A program made the position numbers and the translations under genes. Under the pieces are notes generated by a model. It saw nothing but the letters and a program-made list of their open reading frames with translations, searched no databases and had not been told where the DNA came from. DNA of 64,000 nucleotides from an uncultured Chloroflexia bacterium (GTDB lineage Bacteria; Chloroflexota; Anaerolineae; Fen-1058): the NCBI GenBank assembly GCA_963844815.1, contig CAWJPR010000001.1, positions 8,096-72,095 of the forward strand, read 5' to 3'. How positions within the stretch are numbered: position 1 is the stretch's first letter; each line of letters opens with the position of its first letter. Below are positions 4,276 through 26,202 of the stretch, in pieces.

Positions 4276-4373
4276 TGCACCAGCAGGGACGGCTCCCATG
4301 CCGTCCCTGACCGGGCATATCCACTCGCTTTGCTCGGGAGGCTGCGCTCGGAGCCCGGTCTGCTGATGCCAAA

Positions 4374-4637
4374 TTGAAAAATTCACACGGAGGCATAAAC
4401 ATGATCGCGTTATATGACGTCGCATCCGGCGCCAAGGTTGGCCGCATCACCGAGCAGCAGCTGGAAGCGCTGATGGGTTGGATGGAAGAAGAGAGCACGG
4501 AAGATCGCGACTACTACCTGACGGCGGAGGATTGCGATCTGATGGTCGAGCAGGGCATCGATCCGACGTTGATCGACGTGCTGCGCGAGGCGCTGAAGGG
4601 CCGCGACGATATGGATCTGCGTTACGCGCAGGACTGA
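4374..4637 (+). CDS. Hypothetical small acidic protein
   Basis: 87-aa ORF with a plausible RBS (cacggaggcataaacATG). No recognisable domain. Confidence 0.35.
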   Translation: MKNSHGGINMIALYDVASGAKVGRITEQQLEALMGWMEEESTEDRDYYLTAEDCDLMVEQGIDPTLIDVLREALKGRDDMDLRYAQD

Positions 4638-4650
4638 AACTGGCCGCGCC

Positions 4651-6241: not shown

Positions 6242-6374
6242 GAGTAGCAGACCGGGCTCCCACGCCCGTGGGCCTTCGGACAAGAACTAGTCGAGTGAGG
6301 TTACTATTACCAAACACCGTGAAGCCATACCCACTGCAGCGCCCCGCCTGCGCGCGTTTCTGATTGGCGTCGAC

Positions 6375-7652
6375 GTGCGCGACGCGAACCATTTGCTGGC
6401 CGTGGACGATTCGCTCGAAGAACTGCGCGCCCTGGCCGACACGGCCGGGCTGGAGGTCGTGGGCGAGATGACGCAGAAGCTGGAGCGGATCGAGCCGGCG
6501 ACCTTTATCGGGAAGGGCAAAGTCGAGGAGCTGAAGACGTGGCAGTCCGAGCTGGGCTTTGAAGTGGCCCTGTTTGACGACGAGCTGTCGCCGCGCCATC
6601 AGCGCAATCTGGAGCAGGAACTGGGCGAGAAGGCGCGCGTGCTCGATCGGACGGCGCTGATCCTCGACATCTTCGCGCAGCACGCGCACACGCGCGAAGG
6701 CGCGCTGCAGGTCGAGCTGGCGCAGTACGAATACCGGCTGCCGCGCCTGACGCGCGGTTGGACGCACCTGGTGCGGCAGACCGGCGGCGGGGCGGGGCGA
6801 TCGGGCACGGCCGGCGTGGGCCTGCGCGGCCCCGGCGAGACGCAGCTGGAAGTCGATCGCCGCCAGATCCGGGCGCGCATTACGCTCCTGAAAGAGCAGC
6901 TGGAGGACGTGCGGCAGCACCGGCAGCAGCACCGCGCGCAGCGGCGGCGCGCCCAGGTTCCGGTGGTTTCGATCGTCGGCTACACGAATGCCGGCAAGTC
7001 GTCCCTGCTGAATGCGCTGGTGGACGCGGCGGGGGCGAAACAGACGCTGCCCGTGCTGACCGAAGACAAGCTATTCGCAACGCTCGATCCCACGACGCGG
7101 CGGGTGCGCTTGCCGGCCGGCAAGACCGCGCTGTTTACCGATACGGTGGGTTTCATCCAGAAACTGCCAACGCAGCTGGTGGCGGCCTTCCGCGCGACGC
7201 TCGAAGAGATTGAAGAGGCCGATCTGCTGCTGCACGTGGTCGATATCACGCATCCCAATGCCGTGGAGCAGGCCAAGGCCGTCGAGCAGACGTTGAACGA
7301 CCTGGAGATCAGCGACATCCCGATCGTGGTGGCGCTGAACAAGATCGATCGGCTGGAGCCGGAGCAGCGCGAGGCCCTGCTGGCCGGGCCCTTCCCGCAC
7401 AGCGTGCCGATCTCGGCGCTGCAGCAGATCAACCTCGAGCCGCTGCTGGCGCGCATCGAGCACGAACTGTACGAAAGCCTGCTGCCCGTGCAGGTGCGCC
7501 TGCCCTATCGCCGATCGGACCTGGCCGCGCTGTTTCACGATCACGGCCGCGTCGACGCGGAGCGCTTTGTCGAGAACGCCGTCGTGATTGAGGGCCGGCT
7601 GCCGGCGCGTTACCTGGCTGTCTTCCGGCCTTACCTGGTCAAGGTGGATTAG
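6375..7652 (+). CDS. hflX: GTPase HflX
   Basis: HflX N-domain, then G-domain with G1 VSIVGYTNAGKSSLLNAL, DTVGF, NKID. 425 aa. Confidence 0.85.
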   Translation: MRDANHLLAVDDSLEELRALADTAGLEVVGEMTQKLERIEPATFIGKGKVEELKTWQSELGFEVALFDDELSPRHQRNLEQELGEKARVLDRTALILDIFAQHAHTREGALQVELAQYEYRLPRLTRGWTHLVRQTGGGAGRSGTAGVGLRGPGETQLEVDRRQIRARITLLKEQLEDVRQHRQQHRAQRRRAQVPVVSIVGYTNAGKSSLLNALVDAAGAKQTLPVLTEDKLFATLDPTTRRVRLPAGKTALFTDTVGFIQKLPTQLVAAFRATLEEIEEADLLLHVVDITHPNAVEQAKAVEQTLNDLEISDIPIVVALNKIDRLEPEQREALLAGPFPHSVPISALQQINLEPLLARIEHELYESLLPVQVRLPYRRSDLAALFHDHGRVDAERFVENAVVIEGRLPARYLAVFRPYLVKVD

Positions 7653-7663
7653 GACACCTGCCG

Positions 7664-7700
7664 CCAGACCATGGAACAGGCATAGGGATGCCTGTTCACC
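7664..7700 (+). terminator. Stem-loop (9-bp stem GAACAGGCA/TGCCTGTTC) followed by a T-rich run, downstream of hflX
   Basis: Hairpin visible in sequence, followed by ACCAAGTTTTGAT. Confidence 0.45.
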
Positions 7701-7732
7701 AAGTTTTGATATGAACTCCAGGAGCATGGCGC

Positions 7733-7963
7733 ATGGACAAGTTGGACGCGTGGTTATCCAGGCTGCTCGACCGGATCTCGGACTACGTGTCCACGCATCG
7801 CGGCGTGCCGGTATTGATGGGCGTGCTGCTGGTCGTGTTGAACTACCTGCTGGTGATCATTCCGGGCGTGCAGCTGGGCTTTGTCGAGACGACGAACTTG
7901 TGCCTGCATCTGGGGGTCATCGTCGGATTGCTGGGGGTGCTGCTGGGCGATGCCTTGAGTTGA
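7733..7963 (+). CDS. Hypothetical small membrane protein (2 TM helices)
   Basis: 76-aa hydrophobic ORF. Confidence 0.3.
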   Translation: MDKLDAWLSRLLDRISDYVSTHRGVPVLMGVLLVVLNYLLVIIPGVQLGFVETTNLCLHLGVIVGLLGVLLGDALS

Positions 7964-9218: not shown

Positions 9219-9575
9219 CCGTTGCGGGATTGAAGAACAGTATGCACGAATTGCTTGTTCTTGTCTATCGGCAAACTTACTTAGTTCACCGGATATTCGT
9301 CACTCTTTGCAGACCCCTCCACGGTTAAAGCGCTCTATAGAATCAACGACTTCACCGGCTATTTTTCATGCCTCTGGTTAGAATCCAGTATCAAATATGG
9401 TAAATTTCCATGCCGATTATTTTGCATGAGGAACATAAAAATATATTTGGTTATAAACCAGTAAAAAATGTTGCAAATTTACACGCCGATTCTTCCGGAG
9501 AGGAACATAAAAAGGAAAAGGAGTGCCCTCAAAGTTAGAGCACTCCAACTGAAATCAAACTGAAACGAGCAGAAG

Positions 9576-10472
9576 TCAACGTCCCTGGCGAATCTCAATC
9601 GGGCCGTTGCTGGTATGCAGTTCCAGCGTCGTGCCCGGATCATTGCCCACCGTGCCGCTCAGGCGGTCGTCCGAGAAGTCTTGCGCGGTCACCGCGAAGT
9701 CGCTGCTGATTTTGGAGTTGCTCGTGTCGGCGTTGACGACGAACTGCGCGCCGGCGGGCAGGGTGACGACGAGGCTGCCATTGCTCGTGCGCATTTCACT
9801 GCGCCCGGGCGCCAGCGATCCGCTGAAGCGGAACGGGCCGTTGCTGGTGCGGCCCACGACCACGGCATCCTCGGCCGTCACGTCGATCGGGCCGTTGCTC
9901 GTTTCGACGTCAATCGTCCCGCTGCCGCCGTCGACCGTAATCGGGCCGTTGCTGGTCTGCAGATCGATCTGGCCGAGCGCGCCGCGCGCCGCAATCGGGC
10001 CGTTGGAGGTCTGCGCCTTCACATCGCTCACCGGGCCGGACGTGGTGATCGGGCCGTTGCTGGAGCGCAGATCGAGGATCGCGCCGGCGGGCACGCGCAG
10101 TTTGGCCGACGCGCCGGTGTTGCCGATGTTGACGGCCTGGTCGGTGCGCCGGGCCACGACGCGGATCGTGTCGCCGTCCTGCGTCAGGGTGACTTCGACA
10201 TTCTTCAGGTCGTCTTTGGCGGCCTGCTGCGACATGCCGCCGCCGCGCTTGATCACGTCGACCTTGACGGTGTTGTCGCTGCCGGTCACGACGTCGACGC
10301 TGCCGTTGAACATCTCGACGACGAGGCGGGGCGCCGCGCCGGGCGTGAACGACTGGGTCACGGTTTCTTCGGCGGTAAAGGGGTTGAGGCTGATGTTGGC
10401 GCCGCAGGCGGCCAGCATCAATACGGCGATGGTCAATACGGTGAGGCGCAATAGCGTTATCTTGCGAAACAT
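9576..10472 (-). CDS. Lipoprotein with DUF4097 repeats (TSNGPI repeats), paralogue of the neighbouring gene
   Basis: Signal peptide plus lipobox (LAACG). At least 9 copies of TSNGPI[T/D]. RBS present. Confidence 0.65.
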   Translation of the reverse strand: MFRKITLLRLTVLTIAVLMLAACGANISLNPFTAEETVTQSFTPGAAPRLVVEMFNGSVDVVTGSDNTVKVDVIKRGGGMSQQAAKDDLKNVEVTLTQDGDTIRVVARRTDQAVNIGNTGASAKLRVPAGAILDLRSSNGPITTSGPVSDVKAQTSNGPIAARGALGQIDLQTSNGPITVDGGSGTIDVETSNGPIDVTAEDAVVVGRTSNGPFRFSGSLAPGRSEMRTSNGSLVVTLPAGAQFVVNADTSNSKISSDFAVTAQDFSDDRLSGTVGNDPGTTLELHTSNGPIEIRQGR

Positions 10473-10583
10473 GATGGATTCTCCTTAGAGCGTGATGCGT
10501 ACGCAACCCGTAGTGGGAAGCGGCATGATAAGAATACAGCTTTTGCGGCAGATGTGCCTATCAATCGGCTAACGGGAAGCAGG

Positions 10584-10700
10584 CAGTCAGTCGTCAGTCG
10601 TCAGGAATCAGTAGACAGAAGCCAGAAGGCAGAAGTCGGAGACAGAAGGCAGAAGTCAGGAGGCAGAAGATAGCATTCAGCGGTCAGCGGTCAGATCGTT
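10584..10700. repeat. Heptanucleotide-periodic tandem array (~17 units, consensus CAGNAGN)
   Basis: cagtcgt cagtcgt caggaat cagtaga cagaagc cagaagg cagaagt ... agcggtc agcggtc. Lies in the 5' region of the DUF4097 lipoprotein gene. Confidence 0.7.
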
Positions 10701-11034
10701 ATACCGCACTGCCGCACAGGGGGCCTATGGGCACGCACGAAGTCCCCGCAGTACCACTGACGCAAAGTGTCGGGCATGGGCAAGCGCAGTGGGAATGGGT
10801 GCAATTGTAGTACACTGGGGGCAAAATAGCACTTTTCTGACTCACGGTCGGCGTCAGCCAGTGGGCCTCGACATCGGCGGCGTCGCGCCCGTGCGCGTGC
10901 CGGTGGAGTTGTTGGTGGTGGAGGTGGAGCGGGTGTTCTTGCCGATGATTCGGCGGTAAATCGCGCGGCGCTGTTGCCGTACTGGCAACAGGTCACCTCT
11001 ATGCTGTGGTCATCTTTTACAGCAGAGGTGACCC

Positions 11035-11241
11035 ATGTTTGGCAAGAAGGATGAAAAGCAGAATCGGCTGGAGCGCATGGTGGAGATCATTGCGAAAGCG
11101 CCTGGCGGCATTACCCAGGCAGCCTTGGCCCGCCTGTTGGGCGTGACGCGCTCGACAGTGAACAAGGATTTGGGGGCGCTGGAGAAACGCGGCGTGCGTT
11201 TGTCAGAGGATCATCGAGGACGGTTGCACCGCTCGGATTGA
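11035..11241 (+). CDS. Small HTH DNA-binding protein (resembles the N-terminal HTH of WYL/DeoR-type regulators)
   Basis: 68 aa; ...ITQAALARLLGVTRSTVNKDLGALEKRGV.... The start codon sits inside a 15-bp-stem hairpin (10991..11033). Confidence 0.5.
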   Translation: MFGKKDEKQNRLERMVEIIAKAPGGITQAALARLLGVTRSTVNKDLGALEKRGVRLSEDHRGRLHRSD

Positions 11242-11334
11242 GCAGGCCCGGGAGTATTCGGCAACGGGGGAACATAAAGTGTTTCCATTATTCACTACAT
11301 GTTGTGCTATGCTGTTGTCGTAAAGGAGCGAACG

Positions 11335-12297
11335 ATGAGCAAAGGCTTGAGCCGCGCCGAGCGACTGCGCGAGATGGAACGGCTATATCTTGAGCATGGA
11401 TGGACCGACATTGAGATGGCTGAGCGGTTAGGCGTAGACCGCACGACGGTTTACAAGGATCGCGATCTGCTCTCCAGCGAGTGTCCAATTGAGCCTGACG
11501 ATGACGGGCGCTACAAAATCAACCGGACACGTTACCTGTCCCACATCCGGGTCAACGCCTACGAAGCACTGGCGCTGTATTTGCCCGCGCGGCGCGCGGC
11601 GCGACAGACGTTGGTGGCGCAGCCCCATATCGCCAAGGGGCTGGAGAAGTTAGCCGTTGCGCTCAAGCGGCCCATGACTGAGCGCCTAGTGAAAGCGGCG
11701 AACATCATCCTGGCACAGGCGGCTCTGCCTGAACGAGTGGCAATTATGGAAACGGTGACACGCGGCTGGATCGAACAGCGCAAGATTCGCCTCGCTTACC
11801 GAGGCTTGCGCGCGAGGCAGACCGGCCACCACATCGTCAAACCTTATCTGATCGAGCCGTCACTCTGGAGTGATGGATCATACGTGATCGGCCACAGCGA
11901 TTATTTTGACGACATCGCAGTGTTCAAGATCGAGCGGATTGAATCTGCCGAACTGAAACTTGAGACGTTTGAGATTCCAGAGGATTTCGACGAGCAGCGT
12001 ATGCTGCGCTACGCGTGGGGCATCTGGTCGAGCGAAGAAGAACCGGTCACCGTGCGGCTTAAGTTCAGCGGGCATGAAGCCATCACGCGCATGAAGGAAA
12101 CCATCTGGCATCCGCTCCAGGCCAAGCCTCTGGACCAGCCCGACGGCGACTGCCTCTGGGAAGCGCCCATCGCCGAATGGCAGGAGATGCTGCCGTGGGT
12201 GAGAGGGTGGGGGGCCGATGTGGAGGTGATCGCACCGGAGGAGTTGAGAGAGAAGTTGATGCGCGAAGCGCAGAAGATGGCGGAGCTGTATCAGGTG
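11335..12297 (+). CDS. HTH-WYL-domain transcriptional regulator (CRISPR-associated WYL type); the reading frame continues without a stop into cas3
   Basis: RBS aaggag; N-terminal HTH (EMAERLGVDRTTVYKDRDLL). WYL core (EPSLWSDGSYVIGHSDYFDDIAVFKIERI). Characteristic C-terminal VEVIAPEELREKLMREAQKMAELYQ. Host-like GC (~58-60%). Confidence 0.7.
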
Positions 12298-14760
12298 ATG
12301 GAAATGAAAAAACAACTGATTGCCCACATCCGCGAAAAAGACAAAGCGCGTCAGTCTCTTATCGAGCATTTGACAGTAGTTTCCAAACTTGCAGGGCAGT
12401 TTGCCAGCAAGATTGGGTTGAAAGAGGCAGGTGAAATTCTCGGACTGCTCCATGATTTTGGCAAGGCAAGCGAACAGTTTCAGAATTATTTGCTGTCTGG
12501 AGCCGGTGAGAAAAATCCAGACGCAGATGGCTACATTGACCCAGAGGCAATGCGTGGAAAAATTGACCACTCAACCGCAGGCGCGCAGGTGCTTTACGAA
12601 AATCTTTGGAGCAAAGGGCAGAAGGAAAAAATCGCCGCGCAGGTGCTCACCCTATGTGTCGCTTCCCATCACTCAGGGTTGATTGACTGCCTTGCGCCAG
12701 ACGGAGAAAACAACTTTAAGCGGCGCATGGAAAAAACGGATAAAGATACTCACAAGTCAGAGGCATTATCAAATTTACAGGGAATCGAAACCGCGTTCAA
12801 AGATCTACTCTCGAAAAATGTTGTAGACCAAATCGTGACAAAACTGCAAAGCCTGAAAGAGGAATCCAATGAATCACAGACCAACCTAAATTTCAAAGCG
12901 GGATTGCTTGTCCGTTTTCTGCTCAGTTGCCTGATCGACGCAGACAGGCTCGACACTGCCGATTTTGAGTCCCCAGGCAATGTCCGCATCCGTAACTATG
13001 GGCAATATCACCCTTGGGAGATTTTAATTGAGCGCTTGGAAGACAGGTTAAAGGCGTTTGAGAAAAAGAACGAAGTGGATGAATTGCGCGCCCAGGTGTC
13101 GCAAGCCTGCTTTGAGTTTGCCGTGAAGCCAAAGGGCATTTATCAGTTGACCGTCCCGACAGGCGGCGGCAAGACGCTGGCAAGCTTGCGGTTTGCGTTG
13201 AACCATGCCAGAGAGCACTCAATGGAAAGAGTGTTTTACGTTATTCCTTACACTCTCCATCATTGACCAGAACGCCGAAGAAATCAGAAAGATTTTGGAA
13301 GATACGGACAAAAACGGCAAGTATTTGGATAGAGTGGTTCTTGAACACCACTCCAATTTGATGCCCGAAGAAGAAAGTTACAGGCAGAACCTGCTGGCGG
13401 AAAACTGGGACGCGCCGGTTGTCCTCACGACACAAGTTCAATTTCTGGAAGCGTTATTTGGCGGGCATACGCGCAGCCCGCGCAGAATGCACCAGTTGGC
13501 AAACTCGGTGATTATTTTGGATGAAGTGCAGACCGATCCCAATCAACATGATTCACATGTTGAACCTTGCGCTTCGTTTTCTCGTTCATACTGCGGCGCG
13601 ACAGTCGTGCTTTGTACTGCAACACAGCCGCCGCTTGACAAGCTGGAAAATCCCTATCGCGCTTTAATCATCACCCCGAGCAGCGCATCATCCAGAATGA
13701 GGGAACTATTCGAGCGGTTGAAGCGTGTCGAAGCGTTTGATAAGCGCAAACTCGGTGGATGGAGCGAGGAGGAAGTGGCGGAATTGGCTGAGAGAGCAAT
13801 TGCAAGAAAAAGGCAGCGTGCTGATTGTGGTCAACACCGAGAATCGGCCAAAGCGCTGTATCAAGCCAATCGAACAGGAAAATCGCAGGCGTGCAATCTA
13901 TCATCTCAGCACGAACATGTGTCCTACCCACCGCCTGAATGTACTGAATGAAATCAAAGACGAAACTTAAAGCCGAAAAGAAGCCTGTGATTTGCGTCAG
14001 CACGCAACTCATCGAAGCGGGCGTGGATATTGACTTCGGCGCGGTTATCCGCTATCTGGCAGGGCTGGATTCGATTGCCCAATCAGCAGGGCGGTGCAAC
14101 CGTCACGGAGTGCGCGAGGGATTGGGGAGCGTCTGGGTGGTCAATCCACAGGAGGAAAATATCGAAAGATTGCAGGACATCAAGATCGGCGTGAACAAGC
14201 CCAACGCGTGTTAGACGAATTCGAGAAGAACCCCGAATAGTTTGGAAATGAGCGAATTGGCCTGTACGCGATTGCCGCGTATTACAAGTATTACTACTAC
14301 GAACGAAGAAATGAAATGGAATATCCAGTCGGCGAAAGTCGTCCGCGGAACAAGATGATACGTTGTTCAACTTGCTCTCGACAAATACGCTTTCAGTGGA
14401 CGCATACAAGAGAATTCATAAAGCCGTGCCCGAAATCCTTTTGGGCAGTCATTTCAAACCGCCGCAAAGGAATTTCGGGTGATTGACTCAGCCACGCGGG
14501 GCGTGATCGTTCCATACAAGGAAGGTGATGAGATTATCAAAGACCTGTGCGGCGCGTTTGAGTTGGACAAGCAGGGTAAACTACTCAAAAGGGCGCAGCG
14601 GTATTCCGTTAATTTGTTTCCAACATGAATTCGAAAATTGGCTAAAGTGGGAGCCATCCATGAGGTACAGGCAGGAACAGGGGTTTACTATCTCAATGAA
14701 GCAATACTACAGTGAAGAGTTTGGCTGGAGCGATGAGCCAGTCAATGACATGAAGTTCTT
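12298..14760 (+). pseudogene. cas3: cas3 (type I-C HD nuclease/helicase), fragmented by at least 4 frameshifts
   Basis: HD domain (HLTVVSKLAGQFASKIGLKEAGEILGLLHDFGK, CVASHHSG, CLIDADR). Walker [55 protein letters not shown] and a Cas3 C-terminal domain lie in successive different frames (13205.., 13725.., 13948.., 14525..). GC ~48%. Confidence 0.8.
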
Positions 14761-14790
14761 ATCGGCGAGCGCACTTCAAATTCAACCGAA

Positions 14791-15413
14791 ATGCAACATG
14801 AATGTCGTGGTCGAAAACAATCGAAGTCTAATCAAAACAGCGTAACGTTCAAGGTGTGGGGCAGGTACGCCCTGTTCACCGACCCGCTGACCCGCATTGG
14901 CGGCGAAAAATACTCCTACCAAATTCCCACATACGAGGCATTGAAAGGAATTTTGAGCTCGGTGTATTGGAAACCGACCATCGTATGGGTGATCGACAAG
15001 GTGAGGGTGATGAAGCCCATCCGCACGCAGACCCGCAGCGCAAAGCCAATAAAGTATTCGCTGGCGGAAATGACCTTTCAATTTATACCTATCTCTCGGA
15101 TGTCGAGTATCAGGTGCAGGCGCATTTCGAGTGGAATGAAAATCGCTAAGACCTGGCGCATGACAGCAATGAGAACAAGCATTTCTACATTGCACGGCGG
15201 ATGATCGAGCGCGGCGGCAGAAGGGATGTGTTTCTCGGAACACGGGAATGCCAGGGATATGTCGAGCCGTGTAAATTTGGCGAAAAGGGCTTTTACGACG
15301 ACTATGGCGAAATGTCCTTCGGGCTGATGTTTCACGGCTTTGATTATCCCGATGAAGGCAAGCTGGCGATTTCTGGCACGCTTCTGGCGGCCGAAAATGG
15401 ATTGACGGCGTAA
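14791..15413 (+). pseudogene. cas5: cas5c (Cas5d), at least 2 frameshifts
   Basis: [60 protein letters not shown], then [25 protein letters not shown] and [17 protein letters not shown] in other frames. Confidence 0.8.
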
Positions 15414-15544
15414 TCCAGTTATCCGCCCCGAGGGATTGCAAAGGATTCGCAAGTTTGTGCGCCCGATGAAATCCAATCCGCCCGCCACGATTGGACTAGA
15501 AGAAGAAGGTTGCTCGAAGGCTACAGGAAGGGAGGGCGTGAGAT

Positions 15545-17392
15545 GAACTGGAGCAAAGTTTGTATGAGACATACGAGAATTGTCAAAACATGATTGGCTA
15601 TACCCAGATGACAATGATGTTCCGCTTCTTCCAATATGTCACATTACTGCAAAAGGCGCAGATTGAAATAGTGATAGATGGCAAAGGCGATTTTCGAGAG
15701 AGCACGAGTGTACACAAAGAAGACTCAAGGACAATTATTCCCTGCACCGAAAGCTCTGGCGGCAGCAGAGCTGGGAGTAAGCCGAGCGCATCCCTTATGT
15801 GACAAATTGCAGTACCTTGCTGGCTGATTACCTGACTACGGCGGAGTAAGAGACTCCTAGTTTTGCCAAAGATCCAATGAACCATATGGAATTTTATTAT
15901 CGCTGACTGAATGGTGTCATTCGCAATACACCCACCCAAAAGCCTGTGCAGTTTAGCAATATACCAAAAGGAAACTCTGAATGCAAGATCTAGTAAATCA
16001 CAGGATTTTGCTTGCTAGATGCAAGTGGAAAATTATTGTCCAAAGATAGGTGAAAAGAGAGAAAAATCCAAGGATATCTTCGATTCGTGGTTCTGACCAC
16101 TGCAAGATAGTGCAGGTGCTTTATACGGTGGGAAGTGGAAATTCCTGGACGATTCGAATCGAGAGTCTGGAGCGATGAAGTAATCCAACTTTGGGAATAG
16201 TTGGACTAACTTACTACTTAAACACAAAGATGAAAGAGACATTTGTCTAGGTACCGGGCGAGAAAAATTTATCGCTGACCACCATCCCGAAATACATCCG
16301 AACGATGGGGATAATGCCAAGATAATTTCACCAAACGATACTAGTGGATTCACTTTCCGGGACGTTTCTCTACAGTCAAGACCAAGCGGCGTGGGGCTGG
16401 AGACGACACAAAAAGCCCATTTATGCCCTTCGCTGGCTAATTAGCCGACAAGGCTATTTAGGCAGGAGATTTGGCGGTTGTCGCTTGGGCATTTCGGGCG
16501 CAAACCTGCCCCAGCCGACAGATGATCCATTATCCGGCCCTGATATGGCGACTTACCGCCTGAAGAAAGCAAAGACGGCTGAACTGCTCAGGATATTGGC
16601 CATTCAGACTGAAAAAGAAAATCGCTGGATATCGTCAAGAGATCGGTGAACGTAAGATGTAGTTGTCATGGCAGTGGATTCTGCCACACCGGGGCGGTTG
16701 GCCATCGTCTATTACCGTGCCCTGAAGGCTCCGAGTTCCTGCGAGCGAATTGAAGACTGGCATGAATCTTGTGCTTGGCGGCACATATCGCTCGATCAAG
16801 TTCAGGATCAACAAAGCGGAAAACTAAAAATGTTATATCCCTTTTCATTGGTGCTCCTGCCCCAGCCGATATTGCGGAAGCCGTCCTATGGACGCCGCCT
16901 AGATGACAAACTCCGGAAAGCCAGATCAAACGCCTGCTCCCCTGTATCGTGGACGGTCAGCCCATCCCGCGTGATCTTGTTGAGTCGGTGGTCAGGCGGG
17001 CGTCCAATCGGGCGGGAATCAGAAACCCGGATGAAAAAAATACGTGGGATGGAGATTTACATGGAAGAAAACTCTCAGCATCGCCTGTGCATTATTCGAA
17101 AACACAAAGATGGAAAGGAGAATTACGAGATGGCACTCGATGAACAGAAAGACGAGAGATATCTCTATGGAAGGCTACTCGCCTTGCGGAAAATCCTTGA
17201 AGAATGGGCGTTAAACAAAGCCAAGGAAAATCGGCCGACGAATGCTGCCCGATTACATGCAACGATTCTTCGGAACACCCATATCAGTACATGGGAACGA
17301 TCGAATGATCGCTTACTCCCTACAAGGCGAGGCTTGGCGGAAAGTCAAATAACGCCAGCGAATGATAGATGAAGTTATTGCTTCTTCAATCT
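15545..17392 (+). pseudogene. cas8c: cas8c (Csd1) remnant, heavily degraded (stops in all frames, AT-rich middle)
   Basis: N-terminus MNWSK..YETYENC. C-terminal blocks CIVDGQPIPRDLVESVVRRASNRAG and YEMALDEQKDERYLYGRLLALRKILEEWAL...RPTNAARLHATILRNT lie in two different frames. 15800-16350 is ~40-45% GC with no long ORF. Confidence 0.65.
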
Positions 17393-17539
17393 GAAGATTT
17401 TACAACGATAAGCGGTTAAGCGGAGAATTTTTGATTAGGCTACCATTGCCAACGAGAATATCTACGCAGGAACACCCGACGAATTGCAAATAAAGAAAAT
17501 AACAATCTGAAACAACCAGATAATTCAACCATATCATGA

Positions 17540-18450
17540 TAAGGAGAATTTACCATGACTACCTTAATCGAATAAAATTGACTTTGCCGTAATTATTTGT
17601 GTCAACAATGCCAATCCCAACGGCGACCCGCTCAACGGCAACCGCCCGCGTACCAATTACGAAGGCCTCGGCGAAATGTCCGATGTTTCCATCAAGCGCA
17701 AAATCCGAAACCGCCTGATGGATATGGGCAAATCCGATCTTTGTTCAATCCGATGACAACCGAGTGGACGATTATCGAAGTCTGCGTGACGGGCAGAAGC
17801 GACGCTCAAGGGTGTTGACCAGGACAAAAAGAAATATCGGGAAGCGGCCTGCAAGCATGGCTGGATGTGCGCGCTTTTGGGCAGGTCTTTGCGTTCAAGG
17901 CAAAAAGGGAAGAAGAGCGAAGGTGAAGAGGAAGCGATGGCGTTTCCATTCCCGTACGTGGTCCTGTTTCAATTCATCCTGCTTTTTCAGTGGCTTCCTG
18001 TGCTGGACCGCGTAACCAGCATTCAAATCACCAAAAGCGTCAGCGGCGAAGCCGGCGGAAAAGCGCGGCTCGGACACCATGGGTATGAAGCACCGTGTTG
18101 ATCACGGCGTCTATGTCTTCTATGGCAGCATGAATCCGCAGCTTGCCACAAAAACGGGATTTTCGGATGAGGATGCCGAAGCCATCAAAGAGGCATTGAG
18201 GACACTGTTCCGCAATGACGCCTCGTCTGCGAGGCCTGAAGGAAGCATGGAAGTTTACAAAGTGTATTGGTGGAAGCATAACAACCACAATGGGCAATAT
18301 TCTTCAGCCAAAATACACCGTTTGCTTGATGTGACAGTGAAGCCCAAGAGTAGACAGAACCAAAGAGTATCGGAGATTACGACATTACTCTGAACGAACT
18401 GCCTGGCCTGGGATGTGAAGTGATAGATGGCGATAGGAAATTGCTTCGAC
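17540..18450 (+). pseudogene. cas7: cas7c (Csd2), frameshifts and an early stop
   Basis: KIDFAVIICVNNANPNGDPLNGNRPRTNYEGLGEMSDVSIKRKIRNRLMDMG; later GMKHRVDHGVYVFYGSMNPQLATKTGFSDEDAEAIKEALRTLFRNDASSARPEGSMEV in another frame. The ATG at 17558 is followed by a stop 6 codons later. Confidence 0.75.
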
Positions 18451-18469
18451 CAATTTGGCGCTCGCAATG

Positions 18470-19110
18470 ACAGGATAATGAAGTCCGAATACACCCCGAA
18501 GACCTGCTGCCGCTTTCGGGCATCCAGCACTTCCTGTTCTGCCGCCGGCAGTGGGCGTTGATCCATGTTGAGCGGCAGTGGCAGGAGAACGCGCTCACTG
18601 CCGAAGGCCGGCTTCATGCACAAGCGCATGGATGATCCTTCTTCACCGAAATGCGGAACGGGGTGATCACGGCGCGGGCGGTGCCGGTCGCCTCGTACCG
18701 TCTGGGGCTGTCGGGCGTGTGCGATGTGGTCGAGTTCACCGAGTCGCCGGAAGGTGTTAAGCTGCCGGGACGGAAGGACTGTACCTGCCTGCGCCGGTGG
18801 AATACAAACGCGGCAAGGAAAAACACGATCACAGCGACGAGGCGCAGCTATGCGCCCAGGCCATGTGCCTGGAAGAAATGCTGTCGGTGACCATCCCCAG
18901 AGGATATCTGTATCTACGGCGAGACCCGCCACCGGGTTGAGGTGGAGTTGACGCTGAGCTGCGGAGCCTGGTGCAGGACATGGCAGATGAAATGCATGGC
19001 TATTTCAGCGCGGCTACACCCCCGCGTCAGACCGTCCAAGGCCTGCCGTTCCTGTTCGCTGGCCGATATCTGCCTGCCGAGTTTGCAGGAGAAAGGATGC
19101 ATGCCAGCTT
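18470..19110 (+). pseudogene. cas4: cas4 (RecB-like nuclease with C-terminal Cys cluster), multiple frameshifts
   Basis: [77 protein letters not shown] and C..CSLADICLP are spread over three frames. Confidence 0.7.
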
Positions 19111-19124
19111 CGAAATACATCCGA

Positions 19125-20190
19125 CAGCAGATCGAGAGCACGCTTAAGACTCATGAAGAAACTTGGCAATGTTCTGTATGTCACCACTCCCGAAGCCTAT
19201 CTCTCCCTGGATGGCGAAAATGTCGTCGTCAAGAAGGAACTGAGCATGGCTCTTCGACGCGCCTGCCACTGCACAACCTGGAAAACATCGTCTGCTTCAC
19301 TTAGCAGGGAGCCAGCCCGGCGTTGATGGGCGCCTGCGCCGATCGTAATATCGGTTTGTGTTTCCTCACCCCCAACGGAAAATTCCAGGCGCGGGTCACC
19401 GGCAAGGTAAAGGGCAATGTGCTGCTGCGCAAGAAACAGTACGAATGTCTCGGAGAAGGACAGACAGAGCGTCCCAATTGCCGCCTCCTTCCTGCTGGGC
19501 AAGATCGCCAACTGCCGCAAGGTGATCGAACGCGCCGTCCGCGATCATGCCATGCTGGTGGACGTACCGGCGCTCACCAGGCGCTCCGCCTGTCTGAAGG
19601 AGACGCTGCGCGCCATCCCACAGTGTAAATCGATCGGCGAACTGATGGGCTTCGAAGGCAGCGCGGCGAAAATCTACTTTGGCGTGTTCGATCAGCTGAT
19701 CCTGCAGCAGCGCGAGGAGTTTTTTTCAAGGAACGCTCCCGCCGTCCGCCGCTGGACAACATGAACTAGCTTGCTTTCGTTCCTGTATACCCTGTTGACG
19801 AACGAAGTCGCTTCTGCCCTGGAAACGGTGGGGCTGGACCCCTATGTTGGCTTTTTGCATCAGGACCGTCCTGGGCGTCCTTCGCTGGCGCTGGACTTGA
19901 TGGAAGAGCTGCGCCTGTCTTTGCCGACCGCCTGGCGTTGTCACTGGTGAACCGTAAACAGATCACTGGCAAAGGATTCACACAAAAGGAAAGCGGCGGC
20001 ATCCTGATGGACGATGAGACCCGAAAAGCGGTATTGACCGCCTGGCAGGAGAGAAAAAAAGAGGAGATCCTGCATCCTTATCTCAAGGAACAGATTCCCT
20101 TTGGATTGATCCCCCATGTCCAGGCGATGCTGCTGGCGCGCTATCTGCGCGGCGACCTGGACGCCTATCCGCCATTCTTCTGGAGTTAGC
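19125..20190 (+). pseudogene. cas1: cas1 (type I-C), multiple frameshifts
   Basis: MPASKYIRQQIESTLKTHE.., [104 protein letters not shown] and a terminal YPPFFWS sit in at least 5 frame segments. Confidence 0.85.
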
Positions 20191-20206
20191 GATGCGATGA
20201 TGGTTC

Positions 20207-20566
20207 TTGATCACATATGATGTGAACACGGAAACCGGCCGGGCAAAAAGCGTCTGCGCAAAGTGGCCAAAGAAATGTCAGAATTATGGTCAGCGCGTGC
20301 AGAACTCGGTCTTTGAGTGTCTGATCGACCCGGCCCGTCTGAAGCAATTGCAGAAGTCCCCTGGCAAAATCATCGATACCGAAAAGGATAGCTTACGTTA
20401 TTACTACCTGGGAGATCACTGGAACACACGGGTCGAGCATGTGGCGCCAAAGCCAGGCTTGACCTGGAGGGAACGATCATTGCCTGAAAGTCCGTTCTGC
20501 GAACCCGAAGTTCACATGAAAACCGGGAACGGTTCGCAGGGAATTTGCACTTTAACAACCTGATAT
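20207..20566 (+). pseudogene. cas2: cas2, two closely spaced frameshifts in the N-terminal third
   Basis: MMVLITYDVNTETGR, then KKRLRKVAKEM in the +2 frame, then CQNYGQRVQNSVFECLIDPARL..DSLRYYYLGDHWNTRVEHV back in the original frame. Confidence 0.75.
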
Positions 20567-20665: not shown

Positions 20666-21348
20666 GTCGCCCCTCATGCGAGGGGCGTGGATTGAAACAT
20701 TCGTCGAGGCGCTGGCGGAAAAGGTGCACATGTCGCCCCTCATGCGAGGGGCGTGGATTGAAACCCATCGACAAGGACAACTGCTACGAGATCGAGTCGC
20801 CCCTCATGCGAGGGGCGTGGATTGAAACAGCCAGGCCCAGCGTAATGGCAATGCCGCGCCAGTCGCCCCTCATGCGAGGGGCGTGGATTGAAACCTCAGT
20901 CAGCCCGGTGTCGCCGCTGGTCATCAGGTCGCCCCTCATGCGAGGGGCGTGGATTGAAACACGCCCAACCAGCGGGCGCGGTCGCGCACGAGATGTCGCC
21001 CCTCATGCGAGGGGCGTGGATTGAAACATGTGCTCCTGGTCGTTTCCGCATCTGAGGAAAGGTCGCCCCTCATGCGAGGGGCGTGGATTGAAACCCTAGT
21101 GTCGGTGATCTTTGGCGCGCCAAAATGCCGGTCGCCCCTCATGCGAGGGGCGTGGATTGAAACAGCGGGACGAGCGGCCATGTTACACCGTCAACTGATG
21201 TCGCCCCTCATGCGAGGGGCGTGGATTGAAACACGGAGAGCAGCATGCCTAATAAGAATTCGTTCCGTCGCCCCTCATGCGAGGGGCGTGGATTGAAACC
21301 CGTCCAGCGCCATGTCACGGGTTAGGGAAGCCAGTCGCCCCTCATGCG
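20666..21348 (+). CRISPR. CRISPR array part 1: 10 full 33-nt repeats plus a 15-nt repeat stub interrupted by the IS; type I-C-like repeat GTCGCCCCTCATGCGAGGGGCGTGGATTGAAAC
   Basis: Repeats at 20666, 20732, 20796, ... 21268; spacers 31-36 nt. The repeat ends GTGGATTGAAAC with an internal GCCCCTC/GAGGGGC stem. The final unit is truncated after ...CTCATGCG at 21348. Confidence 0.95.
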
Positions 21349-21565
21349 TGTTTTTGTCAAGCGAAAAGTAGGCCATTTGATGATCGAAAATGGAGCCAGA
21401 GGGTATCAGTTAACCGTAATGTGTTGATCGAAAACAGGGCCAGTTGCTGATCGAAAAGAGGGCCACGGGAGCTACGGCGAGGCTGGCCGCCGTCGTCGCC
21501 GTAGGGGCTGTGGACATGTGGGCAACTGGGCTGTTGCAGTTGTCCACATGTCCACAACCCAGACC

Positions 21566-22330
21566 TCACGGGCCGTGCCCGTTGGTCCGGGCCGCTTGTT
21601 GCTGTCGTTGCCGAAAGCGATAGGACTCACCGATAAATTCCAGGATATGGGCGCGATGCGTGAGCCGATCGAGCAAAGCGCCCGTCAAACGTTCATCGCC
21701 AAAGACCTGCGTCCAATCGGTAAAGCGCAAATTGGTGGTGATAATCAACGCCACGCGTTCGTAGAGTGCCGAGCAGACCTGAAACAACAGCTGCGCACCG
21801 CTGGCCGTAAACGGGATAAAGCCGAGTTCATCGATCACCACCACGCTGTTGAGCAAGCCGTTCAAAACTTTGGGGAGTTGGTGTTTGTCCTGAGCCAGCA
21901 GGAGTTCATTGACCAAGCCAGCGGCATTGTAGAAGCGGACGCGGCGACCTTGGCGACAGGCGGCGAGCGCCAACCCGGTCGCGAGATGGGTTTTCCCTAG
22001 GCCGGGATTGCCGATCAAGATTAAGGGCTCGGCCTGCTCGATGTAAGCGCCCCGCGCCAGATCCAATACGGTCAGTTTAGCCGGGCTGGTCAAGCAACTG
22101 AAGTCGAAATCGGCCAAGTCTTTGAGCACGGGCAAGTGGGCGGCCCTGATGCAACGTGTTTGAAGGTTCTTGTCGCGTTGCATCACTTCGAGTTCCGCCA
22201 GCGCCAGCAGGTAGTGCTCGTAGTCATGATGATTGCGGGTGGCGTCTTCGGCCACGACCCGATGTTGGCGCACGAAGGTTGGCAAGCGCAGTTGTTTCAG
22301 ATAGGTGTCGAGCAGCAAGGTTTCGGCCAT
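21566..22330 (-). CDS. istB: IS21 helper ATPase IstB
   Basis: 254 aa; Walker A LIGNPGLGKTHLATGLA; IS21 IstB signature blocks. Confidence 0.9.
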   Translation of the reverse strand: MAETLLLDTYLKQLRLPTFVRQHRVVAEDATRNHHDYEHYLLALAELEVMQRDKNLQTRCIRAAHLPVLKDLADFDFSCLTSPAKLTVLDLARGAYIEQAEPLILIGNPGLGKTHLATGLALAACRQGRRVRFYNAAGLVNELLLAQDKHQLPKVLNGLLNSVVVIDELGFIPFTASGAQLLFQVCSALYERVALIITTNLRFTDWTQVFGDERLTGALLDRLTHRAHILEFIGESYRFRQRQQQAARTNGHGP

Positions 22331-22333
22331 GGC

Positions 22334-23918
22334 TCACCGCCCGACCTGTAGGAGTTGATCATAGCGCTGCAGATCGAGCGTTTGGTTGCCGACCTGAGCC
22401 AACTGCGGGCGATCCGTCAAATCCAAGGCGGCGGCAACGGCATATCTTCGCGCTGCTGATGCAGGCACAAGCGAATCCCATCCAGATCGGGCAGCCCAGC
22501 GCGAGGGCGCGTTGAATGGCCTGTTCGATCTGGGCAGCGGAATAATCGCGATGCAGTTTCAATACCCGGATGAATTCGCGCACACCACGACCCTCAGGCC
22601 AGGTCGCGCGTAACTGCGCCAGCAGTTGTTCATACACCGGCGGCCAGGTCTTGCGCCAGGCGCGCAGCGGACGGGCGTGCTCAAAAGCCCCCGGCCGTTG
22701 TTCCAGGAGCGGCAGATAGTGCTGTGCGTCAAACAGATCCTGGTCGCGCTCATAACAGCGCGAATGGCGCGCGATAAGTTGCTGGTCGTCCAGAATTCGA
22801 TCCGAAACGGATACGCCTTGAGCGTCAACGTCGCACGCGCGGCTTCGACCGGCACCGAGTAACGATTGGTTTCAAACGTCACCTGGCTGTACGGATTCAG
22901 TGCCACGGTGAGCGTGACACAACAGTCAAAGTCATGATCCGGGAGCGGCCCGCAGGAGGGCCTGTTCTTGCGCAAAGGCCTCGGCGATTGTCCGCGTCCA
23001 ACCATCGGGTTGCCGCTGGCCATCGGCTGCACAGGCGGCACGCAGGTGCGCGTTGAGCGCCTCCAACGAGGCGAAGGCGGGACAGCCCGCCAGAAAGTTG
23101 CGCCGGGCATAGCCAACCCCATGTTCCACACCACCTTTTTCGTGGCCTTCGCCAGGGGTGCAGAAGCGGTCTCAAACAAGTAGTGACTGCGAAACTGGAT
23201 AAAGCTCGGATTCAAGTCTCGTTCGTGCCCCAGCAGCACGCGGGTGACCGCGCTGCCGAGATTGTCGTAAGTCAAAGTGTGGGGCACCCCGCCGAAAAAG
23301 TGAAAGGCGTGGACATGACCATCAAAGAACGATTCTTGTTTCTGGGAAGGAAAGGCCATCACAAACAGTCGGCGCGAATAGCACAACCGCATGACAAACA
23401 ACTGCACCGTGATCCGTTCCCCTGCCACTCCACTTCGGCCTCGCCCCAATCGACCTGGGCGTCGCGACCGGGATCAAATTCAAGCGGGAGATAACCAGCG
23501 GACGACGCCGGGCCTGACGCACCCGCCCGATGTAGCCCCGCACCGTCGATTCACCACCCGTGAAGCCGTCCGCCTGCAATTTGGTGAAGATCACGTGGCT
23601 CGTGTAGCGTTGCTTGCGCGGCAAGGTCTCGTTGTCAGCCAGCCACTGATCGATCTGAGCCTTCACCGGTCCCAACATCGGCGCCGACCGCGGCGCGGTC
23701 AACTGATATTTCGGCATCTCCGCCTCCTCGACCGCCTTGTCAACCGTCGCCCGCGAGTGCCCCATTTCACGGGCGATCTGCCGTTTCGATTTCTGTTCCA
23801 CATAGTACGCCCGCCGAATGCGTTCACGTTCATCCACAGGAATCATCTCCTCGCCTCCGCTAAAGTGGGTCGCCCAACGATAGCAGAGGATGGCGGTGGC
23901 CCTGTTTTCAACCATCAA
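22334..23918 (-). pseudogene. istA: IS21 transposase IstA, at least 3 frameshifts
   Basis: N-terminal HTH (ERIRRAYYVEQKSKRQIAREMGHSRATVDKAV). Downstream DDE-region blocks GGVPHTLTYDNLGSAV, HEKGGVEHGVGYARRNFL (ORF 22932..23129) and NRYSVPVEAA are in different frames. Confidence 0.8.
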
Positions 23919-23957
23919 TTTCTGAGCAGGTGGCCTACTTTTAGAATATCAAAAACA

Positions 23958-26202
23958 CATGCGAGGGGCGTGGATTGAAACATCCTGTCATCGCCTGTGC
24001 TGACCGGCCATAGGGTCGCCCCTCATGCGAGGGGCGTGGATTGAAACAATAACGGAGTTCGCAAGAACATCAATCTGACCGGTCGCCCCTCATGCGAGGG
24101 GCGTGGATTGAAACTGAGCAGCCCCGCGTCCTGCCGCTAGAATGCACCCGTCGCCCCTCATGCGAGGGGCGTGGATTGAAACTGCTTGAATCGATGAAGG
24201 GCAAATTCGGCGGCATGTCGCCCCTCATGCGAGGGGCGTGGATTGAAACCCGTTCGAGCCGTTCACCATCAGCAAGAAACTCCTGTCGCCCCTCATGCGA
24301 GGGGCGTGGATTGAAACATCGGGCGTGACGTTCGCCAATAAACCCGATGGGCGCCCGGGTCGCCCCTCATGCGAGGGGCGTGGATTGAAACAATCATCCC
24401 AGCGAAACGCAGGGCGCGTATCGCCTGTCGCCCCTCATGCGAGGGGCGTGGATTGAAACCGAGAGTCGCAGCGCGTCGAGTAGATCGGTTACTGGTCGCC
24501 CCTCATGCGAGGGGCGTGGATTGAAACCACCTCGATCCCGCTGATGTGCGTTGGGAAACAGTCGCCCCTCATGCGAGGGGCGTGGATTGAAACTTTACGC
24601 TGCTCTTGCGCCATGTTGCCCCGTTCGTGTCGCCCCTCATGCGAGGGGCGTGGATTGAAACAGCAATTTGTCGCCGGCGACGCAGCAGACGATTGGTCGC
24701 CCCTCGCATGGAGGGGCGTGGATTGAAACTTTCTGGAACGGCCGCGCATCGCACCAGGATCGCGTCGCCCCTCATGCGAGGGGCGTGGATTGAAACACAT
24801 ACCGTTACGCTCGTAAACGTCGATACGCTTCTGTCGCCCCTCATGCGAGGGGCGTGGATTGAAACCTTCGACATCGGTCTTAAAGTATGGCCTGACATCG
24901 TCGCCCCTCATGCGAGGGGCGTGGATTGAAACGTTCGCGCTCTGTTGCGTGGTCTGTGGCGTCATGTCGCCCCTCATGCGAGGGGCGTGGATTGAAACCC
25001 CCGTGTAGGGGTCAAAGGTCGCCCGGATCGGGCGTCGCCCCTCATGCGAGGGGCGTGGATTGAAACCCCCGTGTAGGGGTCAAAGGTCGCCCGGATGGGC
25101 GTCGCCCCTCATGCGAGGGGCGTGGATTGAAACAGCTTGCGCAATCTGTCTATGACTCTCTGAAGCGTCGCCCCTCATGCGAGGGGCGTGGATTGAAACG
25201 GCTTACAATCCTGTCTCGTCCATAGGGTATCGCGTCGCCCCTCATGCGAGGGGCGTGGATTGAAACTGTGCGCGGCGCTCTAGCGCCTGCTGCCATCGGG
25301 TCGCCCCTCATGCGAGGGGCGTGGATTGAAACCGCGCGCAGCGCGCACCAGCGGGGCGGGGACAAGTCGCCCCTCATGCGAGGGGCGTGGATTGAAACCG
25401 CCGCTCTGCCGTTTCCGTGCCGCTTTGTCGTGTCGCCCCTCATGCGAGGGGCGTGGATTGAAACAACGCCGAGCTCTCACCGCAGGAACTCGAAGACGTC
25501 GCCCCTCATGCGAGGGGCGTGGATTGAAACGCAATTGTCTACCATCAACAGCGCAATTGAAACTTGTCGCCCCTCATGCGAGGGGCGTGGATTGAAACGC
25601 GCTGGAAAAGCGCATCAAATCACACCCGCCTAGTCGCCCCTCATGCGAGGGGCGTGGATTGAAACCTGTCGATGCGGCCGGGGCCTGAATGGGCAGGCCG
25701 TCGCCCCTCATGCGAGGGGCGTGGATTGAAACACAGAGGCGTGAGACGGATGTGGCGGTGCGGCGGAAGTCGCCCCTCATGCGAGGGGCGTGGATTGAAA
25801 CCCACGTCACTCCCCGCCCCCATCACCGCCTTACTGTCGCCCCTCATGCGAGGGGCGTGGATTGAAACGCGGCATGGTCGAGAGCATCGCCGAAGATCGT
25901 GCGTCGCCCCTCATGCGAGGGGCGTGGATTGAAACGCGGCATGGTCGAGTAGCAATCGCGACGATCGTGCGTCGCCCCTCATGCGAGGGGCGTGGATTGA
26001 AACTTCACGCGTTCGGCTGCCAGGCACGCGATCGCGAGTCGCCCCTCATGCGAGGGGCGTGGATTGAAACTGCGGCGTGCAGATTGGTCTCGCGCGGCTT
26101 CGACGTCGCCCCTCATGCGAGGGGCGTGGATTGAAACATCGCGATACGCGACGCTGGAGCAGCTGGCGAGTCGCCCCTCATGCGAGGGGCGTGGATTGAA
26201 AC
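23958..26202 (+). CRISPR. CRISPR array part 2: the remainder of the split repeat plus 33 full repeats. One variant repeat sits at 24696..24729. The last repeat (26170..26202) is perfect
   Basis: Same 33-nt repeat. Adjacent near-identical spacers at ~24999 and ~25067. Adjacent related spacers at 25869 and 25936. The variant repeat GTCGCCCCTCGCATGGAGGGGCGTGGATTGAAAC keeps the stem. Confidence 0.95.

Follow-up and report, generated by a model that had tools for sequence, protein, structure and literature searches.

Fusions of a WYL domain to Cas3 were mentioned a decade ago, when Makarova, Anantharaman, Grishin, Koonin and Aravind stated in 2014 that they occur in some type I CRISPR-Cas systems (Front Genet 5:102, PMC4012209). 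Transcription factors built from a winged helix-turn-helix (wHTH), a WYL and a WCX domain bind single-stranded DNA (ssDNA) via the WYL domain and alter transcription (PMC9186387), and ssDNA binding by WYL-domain regulators is also described in two further papers (PMC11662680, PMC11804915). No functional study of WYL-Cas3 fusions was found in a full-text literature search. Here we analyse a gene of this type on a stretch of 64,000 nucleotides (nt), hereafter the window, from an uncultured Chloroflexia bacterium (GenBank assembly GCA_963844815.1, contig CAWJPR010000001.1), where a wHTH-WYL-WCX regulator reads in frame into the Cas3 of a type I-C locus. The feature is real and of a known but uncharacterised kind. 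The original prediction, made from the letters alone, held a WYL-Cas3 fusion to be undescribed, and the 2014 statement precedes it; the read-through is real biology that is neither unique nor undescribed.

A WYL regulator joined to type I-C Cas3

The open reading frame (ORF) in question occupies positions 11299..13266 on the forward strand, and its product, counted from the ATG at 11335, is 643 amino acids long. To judge from the sequence, this ATG is almost certainly the true start, because an AGGAG lies 7 nt upstream (11324-11328) and because homologues have the N-termini MSKG... or MSGM.... The former is found in P0008, a fused WYL-Cas3 protein of 1069 amino acids and of Cas3 lineage B (see below), which is encoded on a Joint Genome Institute (JGI) contig, L004, that is syntenic with the window. 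Amino acids 1-321 of the fusion protein (11335..12297, forward strand; guanine-cytosine (GC) content 0.60, like that of the host) make up the wHTH-WYL-WCX regulator module, as indicated by Pfam, by the match of a family profile to DriD and by identity to L004. A hidden Markov model search recovered the WYL domain (PF13280, 30.0 bits, cut-off 21.8) at amino acids 137-206, in agreement with the original prediction, and the WCX domain (PF25583, 61.3 bits, cut-off 23.9) at amino acids 236-316. The HTH_11 model scored below its cut-off in the fusion ORF (17.8 vs 25 bits). The N-terminal wHTH is indicated by DriD, which aligns from profile residue 5, and by an AlphaFold2 (AF2) model of the homologue P0004, in which residues 7-62 form three helices and a beta hairpin with a predicted local distance difference test score (pLDDT) of 87-89.

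Instead of ending as a free-standing regulator of 300-350 amino acids, the module runs in frame into Cas3. The Cas3 HD domain (TIGR01596, 117.6 bits, cut-off 43.45) covers amino acids 342-542, and helicase motif I (PTGGGKT) begins at amino acid 608, still inside the ORF. The WYL domain, the Cas3 HD domain and helicase motif I therefore share a single frame from 11335. At the junction, the codons from 12295 read GTG ATG GAA ATG (V321, M322, E323 and M324) with no stop among them, and the protein reads ...A-E-L-Y-Q-V321-M322-E323-M324-K-K-Q-L-I-A-H.... Both the in-frame reading of the regulator into Cas3 and the sharp GC drop at the junction, which had been noticed originally, were borne out: GC is 0.595 (0.725 at third codon positions, GC3) in 11335-12240 and 0.481 (GC3 0.345) in 12300-13254. 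M322 and M324, with AGGTGA upstream, were considered as the start of a free Cas3 and were rejected, as the methionine is missing in several homologues (P0004, P0081 and L081). A sigma-70 promoter scan detected nothing convincing inside the gene at the junction. Very likely, the ORF represents the 5' portion of a true fusion gene, in which a DriD/CapW-type module is followed by a linker of ~5-10 residues and a type I-C Cas3. The encoded protein would thus consist of a wHTH, a three-helix linker, a WYL and a WCX domain joined to an HD nuclease and a superfamily 2 (SF2) helicase.

The N-terminal part, or head, has structural relatives along its whole length. A profile of the family matched full-length DriD (8TP8) at E = 4.8e-13 over profile positions 5-313, PafBC was also matched, and the same profile matched type I-C Cas3 (8ZNS, 8G9U_P) at E = 1e-27 to 1e-28 over the remainder. 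The AF2 model of P0004 (pLDDT 85, predicted template modelling score (pTM) 0.73) shows a winged HTH, a helical linker of lower confidence, a beta-barrel WYL domain, the WCX domain and ~10 residues of lower confidence, followed by Cas3. Searching with this model, Foldseek retrieved 8ZNS and 8G9U with template modelling scores (TM) of 0.72-0.74, and DriD (8TPK/8TP8) over ~335 columns at E ~1e-13. Taken together, the profile matches and the model predict that the head is an entire transcription factor of the DriD/CapW/BrxR/PafBC type, and more than a WYL domain. No direct sequence match to CapW/BrxR was obtained for the head.

Sequence comparison shows the fusion to be old and conserved, and no one-off accident. 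Among 5.8 billion proteins searched for homologues, more than 100 clusters of 1060-1120 amino acids were found, at 42-60% identity and 99-100% query coverage, with WYL, WCX, Cas3_HD, DEAD and Cas3_C domains. A species-level scan, with one genome per species and the window's own genome lying outside the representatives scanned, found a relative in 369 genomes, and the best 80 loci were classified. Sixty of these have one continuous WYL-HD-helicase ORF of 1058-1250 amino acids. The Cas3 part belongs to I-C lineage B ('YYAHSRKGEDKSxWQ') in 29 of them, is I-E-like in 20, and in 11 belongs to I-C lineage A ('QLIAHxRKKDK'), the type found in the window. Cse1 and Cse2 are encoded downstream in the I-E-like loci L053 and L010, together with Cas7e and Cas6e in L053. 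The remaining 20 loci encode a stand-alone WYL protein of 323-378 amino acids. A cas3 match lies downstream of 15 of the 19 complete stand-alone genes, and ~10 of these matches begin ~65 nt past the WYL stop. The database search that the original prediction had proposed, for fused homologues and for WYL genes upstream of cas3, thus yielded both. Its simpler reading, a WYL-regulated I-C locus, was right in spirit; it is the stand-alone relatives that usually have a cas3 match from ~65 nt downstream.

The junction itself is conserved in the family: a motif of the form '...ELR..L.REAQ.LAELY.V.E' leads straight into the Cas3 N-terminus, and the alignment of the window's junction to the lineage-A loci L003 and L001 is gap-free. 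The carriers are almost all Chloroflexota (Anaerolineae, Caldilineae, Ardenticatenia-type and Chloroflexus), with at least one of them in culture, Bellilinea caldifistulae GOMI-1, whose locus L052 encodes a fused protein. A metagenome-assembled genome of Brevefilum fermentans encodes two fusions (L060 and L062) with separate head variants, the Cas3 being of I-C lineage B in one and I-E-like in the other.

The cas operon and its frameshifts

The Cas3 body spans 12298..14767 on the forward strand, with the HD domain at 12358-12960, helicase motif I at 13156-13176 and the C-terminal domain beyond. It is intact to 13254 and then contains 9-16 frameshifts. The ORF ends at the TGA at 13264-13266 because of the first of these, a +1 frameshift at ~13255, and this stop is not the natural gene end. 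The helicase core and the Cas3 C-terminal domain are consequently not found in one intact ORF. A separate fragment (13948-14211) matches Cas3-like_C_2 at 52.4 bits, fragments matching TIGR01587 fall below the cut-off, and the remainder of the protein was recovered after frame correction. The genes that follow on the same strand are all frameshifted as well. These are cas5c (14824-15539; TIGR01876, 95.7 bits, cut-off 85), cas8c (15543-17536; a TIGR01863 fragment of 58 bits), cas7 (17555-18434), cas4 (18478-19142), cas1 (19153-20186) and cas2 (20197-20484). Frame-aware alignments to the proteins of L001 support cas5c, cas8c and cas7, and after frame correction the cas4, cas1 and cas2 products are 84%, 90% and 78% identical, respectively, to those of L004. 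This gene set, together with a CRISPR array and with no cas6 among the annotated cas genes, agrees with the type I-C assignment made originally, and the gene order matches that of L001 and L004 (Pfam-annotated).

The frameshifts, each of ±1 nt, form a block at 13255..20441 on the forward strand that extends from the 3' part of cas3 through cas2. When intact homologues were aligned to the DNA in a frameshift-aware manner, ~66 were counted with a lenient penalty and 46 with a much stricter one. By comparison with L004 and with P0124, the closest Cas3 relative of the window and itself a fusion (1157 amino acids), there are none in 11335-13254, and six flanking host genes have 0-1 frameshift each relative to L004. 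Upstream of the locus, a DUF4140/DUF4139 gene (4651-6241), which is a 529-amino-acid ORF in L004, is split in the window by a frameshift at ~5011 and is either affected by an indel error or a pseudogene.

We think it likely that the block is an uncorrected assembly error, from unpolished long reads or gap filling, because the damage consists of indels only and because its edges (13255 and 20441) lie off gene and recombination boundaries. If so, the true product would be ~1150 amino acids long. It counts against an intact fusion gene that the gene is not whole in the assembly, and the locus would be dead if the frameshifts were real; the cas operon would then be a decaying cluster of pseudogenes and the 643-amino-acid product a truncated WYL-HD protein. 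Several features fit such decay: the frameshifts are confined to cas genes, an IS21 element disrupts the CRISPR array, in-frame stops are left after correction at 14238, 15147, 15954, 17306 and 19302, and the indels are not obviously linked to homopolymers, for which we saw no clear bias. However, a single frameshift suffices to kill a gene, and in natural decay substitutions far outnumber indels. Here the 46-66 indels come without a matching excess of substitutions, since the frame-corrected Cas3 is 79.6% identical to P0124 before 13255 and 77.5% identical after it, and the frame-corrected Cas1 is 89-90% identical to the Cas1 of L001 and L004. The abrupt edges, moreover, fit neither gene nor recombination boundaries. 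Decay of the operon is therefore unlikely, and assembly error is the reading that we prefer. The annotated 643-amino-acid protein is in any case a truncation from a low-quality or decayed stretch.

Probable exchange of Cas3 bodies at the junction

L004 carries the same small HTH gene, the fused WYL-cas3 gene that encodes P0008 and a complete I-C operon, and its DNA is 80-85% identical to the window over 2938-7961 and 10972-12292. The homology detected by blastn ends at 12292 and resumes at 18485, with cas4 (82.5%) followed by cas1, cas2 and the array. Between these two positions the window matches L001, L002 and L003 at 69-77% DNA identity and has no match to L004. In 60-nt segments, L004 goes from 0.88-0.90 identity down to 0.42-0.53, and the identity to L003 rises to 0.82-0.83 across 12230-12290. 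This switch places a putative recombination crossover at 12230..12300 (forward strand), which coincides with the domain junction, that is, the last WCX helix and a linker of ~5 residues. The protein comparisons show the same pattern. Amino acids 1-300, 301-322 and 323-643 of the window protein are 85%, 45% and 38% identical to P0008, and the corresponding values for P0124 are 36%, 68% and 79%. For P0002 and P0004 they are 56-57%, 45-59% and 60-62%. The GC content is 0.486 in 12300-18480 and 0.57 in the adaptation module.

On these alignments, the interference module (the Cas3 body, cas5, cas8c and cas7; ~12.24-18.48 kb) seems to have been swapped within a gene that was fused already. Its replacement would be a cassette of lower GC derived from another fused lineage, and the regulator head and the adaptation module would have stayed in place. 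The left crossover would fall where the 3' end of the WCX coding sequence is conserved, which would have preserved the reading frame, and the GC change at the junction would be the result of the swap. The original prediction had interpreted this change as the insertion boundary of a foreign I-C cassette beside a host WYL gene. The GC break does seem to bound imported DNA, but L004 is already fused and has a full I-C operon, and what arrived from outside would be cas3 to cas7, swapped inside the gene.

Comparable exchanges can be recognized elsewhere in the family. Across 52 fused genes, GC content is on average 0.063 higher in the WYL part than in the Cas3 part (maximum 0.19), and for 38 of 83 WYL modules the partner class differs from that of the nearest WYL neighbour. 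The heads of four pairs of loci (L009/L060, L008/L033, L062/L029 and L066/L083) share 88-95% of their amino acids (and, where it was measured, ~80-87% of the DNA sequence), and the bodies are unrelated (I-C A, I-C B or I-E) or absent, with the divergence falling within amino acids ~305-320. In the first of these pairs the WYL module is 95% identical and the proteins are unrelated past '...AELYK.VE'. These breakpoints were read from visual alignments, since an automatic finder was misled by HD motifs that are conserved between I-C lineages A and B. In L001, positions 9571-10001 hold the palindrome and hairpin described below, a stretch of ~45 codons from the N-terminal end of a lineage-B cas3 (MYYAHSKEGLEKSEWQ...) and what is left of the WCX tail, and these precede an 'unfused' lineage-A Cas3 (P0033). 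The remnants look like the scar of an independent replacement of the interference module.

A point on the other side is that the source assembly is of metagenome type, in which a mis-join at conserved WCX sequence is possible. The break in GC and homology would then be an assembly chimera of two organisms or strains joined at the WCX region, and the hybrid gene would exist in no cell. Besides the metagenome-like source, this explanation can draw on the indel block to the right, which points to a different assembly or polishing, and on a stretch of ~50 nt that is highly conserved between lineages. It would, however, require two precise mis-joins, because synteny with L004 is back at cas4, cas1, cas2 and the array. 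The crossover also lies ~1 kb inside clean sequence, and an independent contig, L001, shows the same mosaic of low-GC cas3-cas7 and host-like cas4-cas2. The drop in GC after the WYL part is general in the family, and discordant pairings of WYL and Cas3 parts are common in unrelated assemblies. A chimera is thus very unlikely, and exchange within a fused gene accounts better for the mosaic.

Two other explanations concern the in-frame junction itself. It is highly improbable that the read-through is a sequencing error in which an indel near 12296 hides a stop between two separate genes. The 46-66 frameshifts just 1 kb downstream, and the one in a flanking host gene at ~5011, are what could suggest it, but 11335-13254 is free of frameshifts relative to L004 and P0124, the junction is equal in length to those of L003 and L001 with no gap, and the fused state is the norm of the family. 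The original prediction had proposed that a stop/start overlap was converted into a fusion by a 1-nt change, reading the TGA at 12296-12298, within GTGATGG (12295-12301), as the former stop; this TGA is out of frame and is simply part of the codon pair GTG ATG. A recent, genome-specific fusion of a host WYL gene to a foreign cas3 by a 1-nt indel at GTGATGG, for which the overlap of the out-of-frame TGA with the ATG (12296-12301) and the GC shift at the same place might speak, can practically be dismissed, given that the ORF is continuous in 60 of 80 loci, that more than 100 clusters at 42-60% identity share this state, that the junction aligns gap-free to L003 and L001, and that both the syntenic L004 and the closest Cas3 relative, P0124, are fused.

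Flanking elements, proposed regulation and known systems

A 19-bp palindrome, TGTTGCCGTACTGGCAACA (TGTTGC-N7-GCAACA), is located upstream of the small HTH gene at 10972..10990 (forward strand) and is a candidate operator. The DNA homology to L004 resumes exactly at this element. Sixty of 82 loci have the motif at a distance of no more than 700 nt upstream from the WYL(-cas3) gene, and it is nearly exclusive to this position, because just 63 matches were found in the 1.31 Mb of loci. It ends ~9 nt before a -10-like hexamer (TACAGT, TAAAGT or TATGCT) and would therefore overlap the -35 position. Sites in DriD-dependent promoters likewise overlap the would-be -35 position (PMC13004042). Further upstream, heptamer tandem repeats resembling (CAGAAGG)n occupy intergenic DNA at 10609-10670.

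The palindrome is followed by a predicted hairpin (GGTCACCTCT...AGAGGTGACC; 10991..11033, forward strand) with 10-nt arms that are 100% complementary, the 3' arm containing the Shine-Dalgarno (SD) sequence of the small HTH gene. In the window, the leader of ~48 nt from the palindrome to the start codon folds at -26.1 kcal/mol (z = -6.6). Leaders of 50 loci, each folded singly, which gives stability and SD pairing and is not a formal covariation test, have a mean minimum free energy of -19.6 and a mean z of -4.3. At least 80% of the SD lies in base pairs in 88% of these loci, and the arm sequences vary between loci. Rfam gave no match in 10400-12500, and RNAalifold found no consensus structure in a MAFFT alignment of the leaders, in which the hairpin arms were misaligned.

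The small HTH gene (11035..11241, forward strand) encodes 68 amino acids with a Pfam HTH_11 match of 36.4 bits, and a 68-amino-acid gene is also called in L004. Homologues detected by tblastn lie upstream of the WYL gene in ~58 of 84 loci, both fused and stand-alone, mostly at a distance of 95-425 nt. The protein could be a co-regulator or an antagonist. Before the fusion gene there is a promoter-like block with a ribosome-binding site (RBS) (TGTTTCCATT..TGCTATGCTGTTG..AGGAG; 11280..11334, forward strand), which is conserved in seven aligned loci and includes TGTTGC-like half sites and a TGcTATGCT motif. From its sequence, this block presumably acts as a promoter/RBS region. Neither of the two conserved upstream blocks was called by the sigma-70 scan.

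The type I-C CRISPR array lies beyond cas2 at 20666..26202 (forward strand) and has 42 identical 33-nt repeats, GTCGCCCCTCATGCGAGGGGCGTGGATTGAAAC, all of them perfect and ending in ATTGAAAC. An IS21-family element on the reverse strand (21300-24014; IstB and IstA by Pfam) sits between two repeats and splits the array. Its IstB ORF (21566-22330) is intact, and IstA is present in two overlapping ORFs (22559-23449 and 23322-23918). An apparent 'spacer' of 102 nt at 24662-24763 holds a mutated 34-nt repeat (GTCGCCCCTCGCATGGAGGGGCGTGGATTGAAAC) with an altered loop. Tandem Repeats Finder also reported a duplicated spacer at 24966-25133, where a 68-nt unit of repeat plus spacer is present in 2.5 copies at 99% identity. 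Elsewhere in the window, tandem repeats of 236/356 nt occur inside a coding region (57032-57819).

We tentatively propose, with somewhat less than even confidence, that the head exerts ssDNA-dependent control over the operon of small HTH gene, WYL-cas3 and cas genes; this role is suggested by DriD, CapW and PafBC, whose WYL domains bind ssDNA and which alter transcription. The N-terminal module would dimerise and bind the TGTTGC-N7-GCAACA palindrome, and possibly the related half sites, and the WYL domain of the head would sense ssDNA as in those three proteins. The operon's expression, and perhaps also how much Cas3 is available, would in this way be tied to ssDNA arising from infection, from DNA damage or from the unwinding by Cas3. 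Further layers of control may come from the small HTH protein and from the hairpin that sequesters the SD. Fusion would fix the ratio of regulator to Cas3 at 1:1, and the head could keep Cas3, when idle, at its own promoter or lend the helicase an ssDNA-binding module, as in TePif1. More speculative, and rather doubtful at present, is the idea of Cas3 as a self-reporting effector, in which the head binds the operator, senses the ssDNA made during interference and feeds forward into cas/CRISPR expression or priming, with the junction having evolved into a plug-in point at which one host-adapted head, along with its small HTH partner and leader hairpin, accepts interchangeable I-C or I-E modules.

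Three observations weigh against this proposal. The N-terminal module is placed without confidence in the AF2 model, where the linker bundle has a pLDDT of 44-66 and the overall pTM is 0.73. The positions through which DriD contacts ssDNA are kept only in part, in an alignment of low confidence (Y183, F197 and K198, corresponding to Y192, W206 and R207 of DriD). Finally, the palindrome could be bound either by the small HTH protein or by the WYL module.

Cas3 is an ssDNA-generating machine, and WYL factors have recently been shown to sense ssDNA. A conserved family that unites a putative ssDNA-sensing factor and an ssDNA-making enzyme in one polypeptide is therefore useful, and together with its recognisable candidate operator, partner HTH gene and leader hairpin and its occurrence in a cultured organism it lets a link between interference and regulation be tested directly. 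That Cas3 bodies have apparently been exchanged more than once at a single junction would also be a clean case of modular CRISPR-Cas evolution. The value lies in the family, with its sensor head, operator, partner gene and interchangeable bodies, rather than in this copy.

Among described regulators, DriD of Caulobacter crescentus (8TP8/8TPK) is similar to the head along its full length by profile and fold, and the candidate operator here, a short way upstream of a -10-like hexamer, has about the same position as DriD sites. DriD differs in being a free-standing protein of 327 amino acids that functions in the DNA-damage response, whereas the head is fused to a nuclease-helicase; identity between the two is just ~20%, and the ssDNA-contact residues are kept in part. 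CapW and BrxR share the domain organisation and are encoded at the head of immune operons, and ssDNA is the ligand shown for CapW (PMC11662680). They are, however, separate proteins that regulate CBASS or BREX and not CRISPR, and they are unfused to an effector.

The Cas3 part resembles type I-C Cas3 proteins of solved structure (8G9U chain P and 8ZNS) in sequence and fold, at 28-30% identity, but those proteins have 771-854 amino acids and are without an N-terminal regulator module. In TePif1 (bioRxiv 10.1101/163188) a WYL domain is likewise fused to a helicase, where it is an accessory ssDNA-binding module. That WYL domain is C-terminal and stands alone, without HTH or WCX, and the helicase belongs to superfamily 1 and lies outside CRISPR. 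The fusions mentioned in 2014 (PMC4012209) have the same architecture, with WYL N-terminal to an HD and SF2 helicase Cas3 in type I loci; that description is a single sentence and gives no anatomy. To it we add that the fused part is predicted to be a complete wHTH-WYL-WCX transcription factor, that the fusions are concentrated in Chloroflexota with I-C (two lineages) and I-E-like partners, that a small HTH gene, a palindrome and a hairpin accompany them, and that the junction appears to be a recurrent point of exchange.

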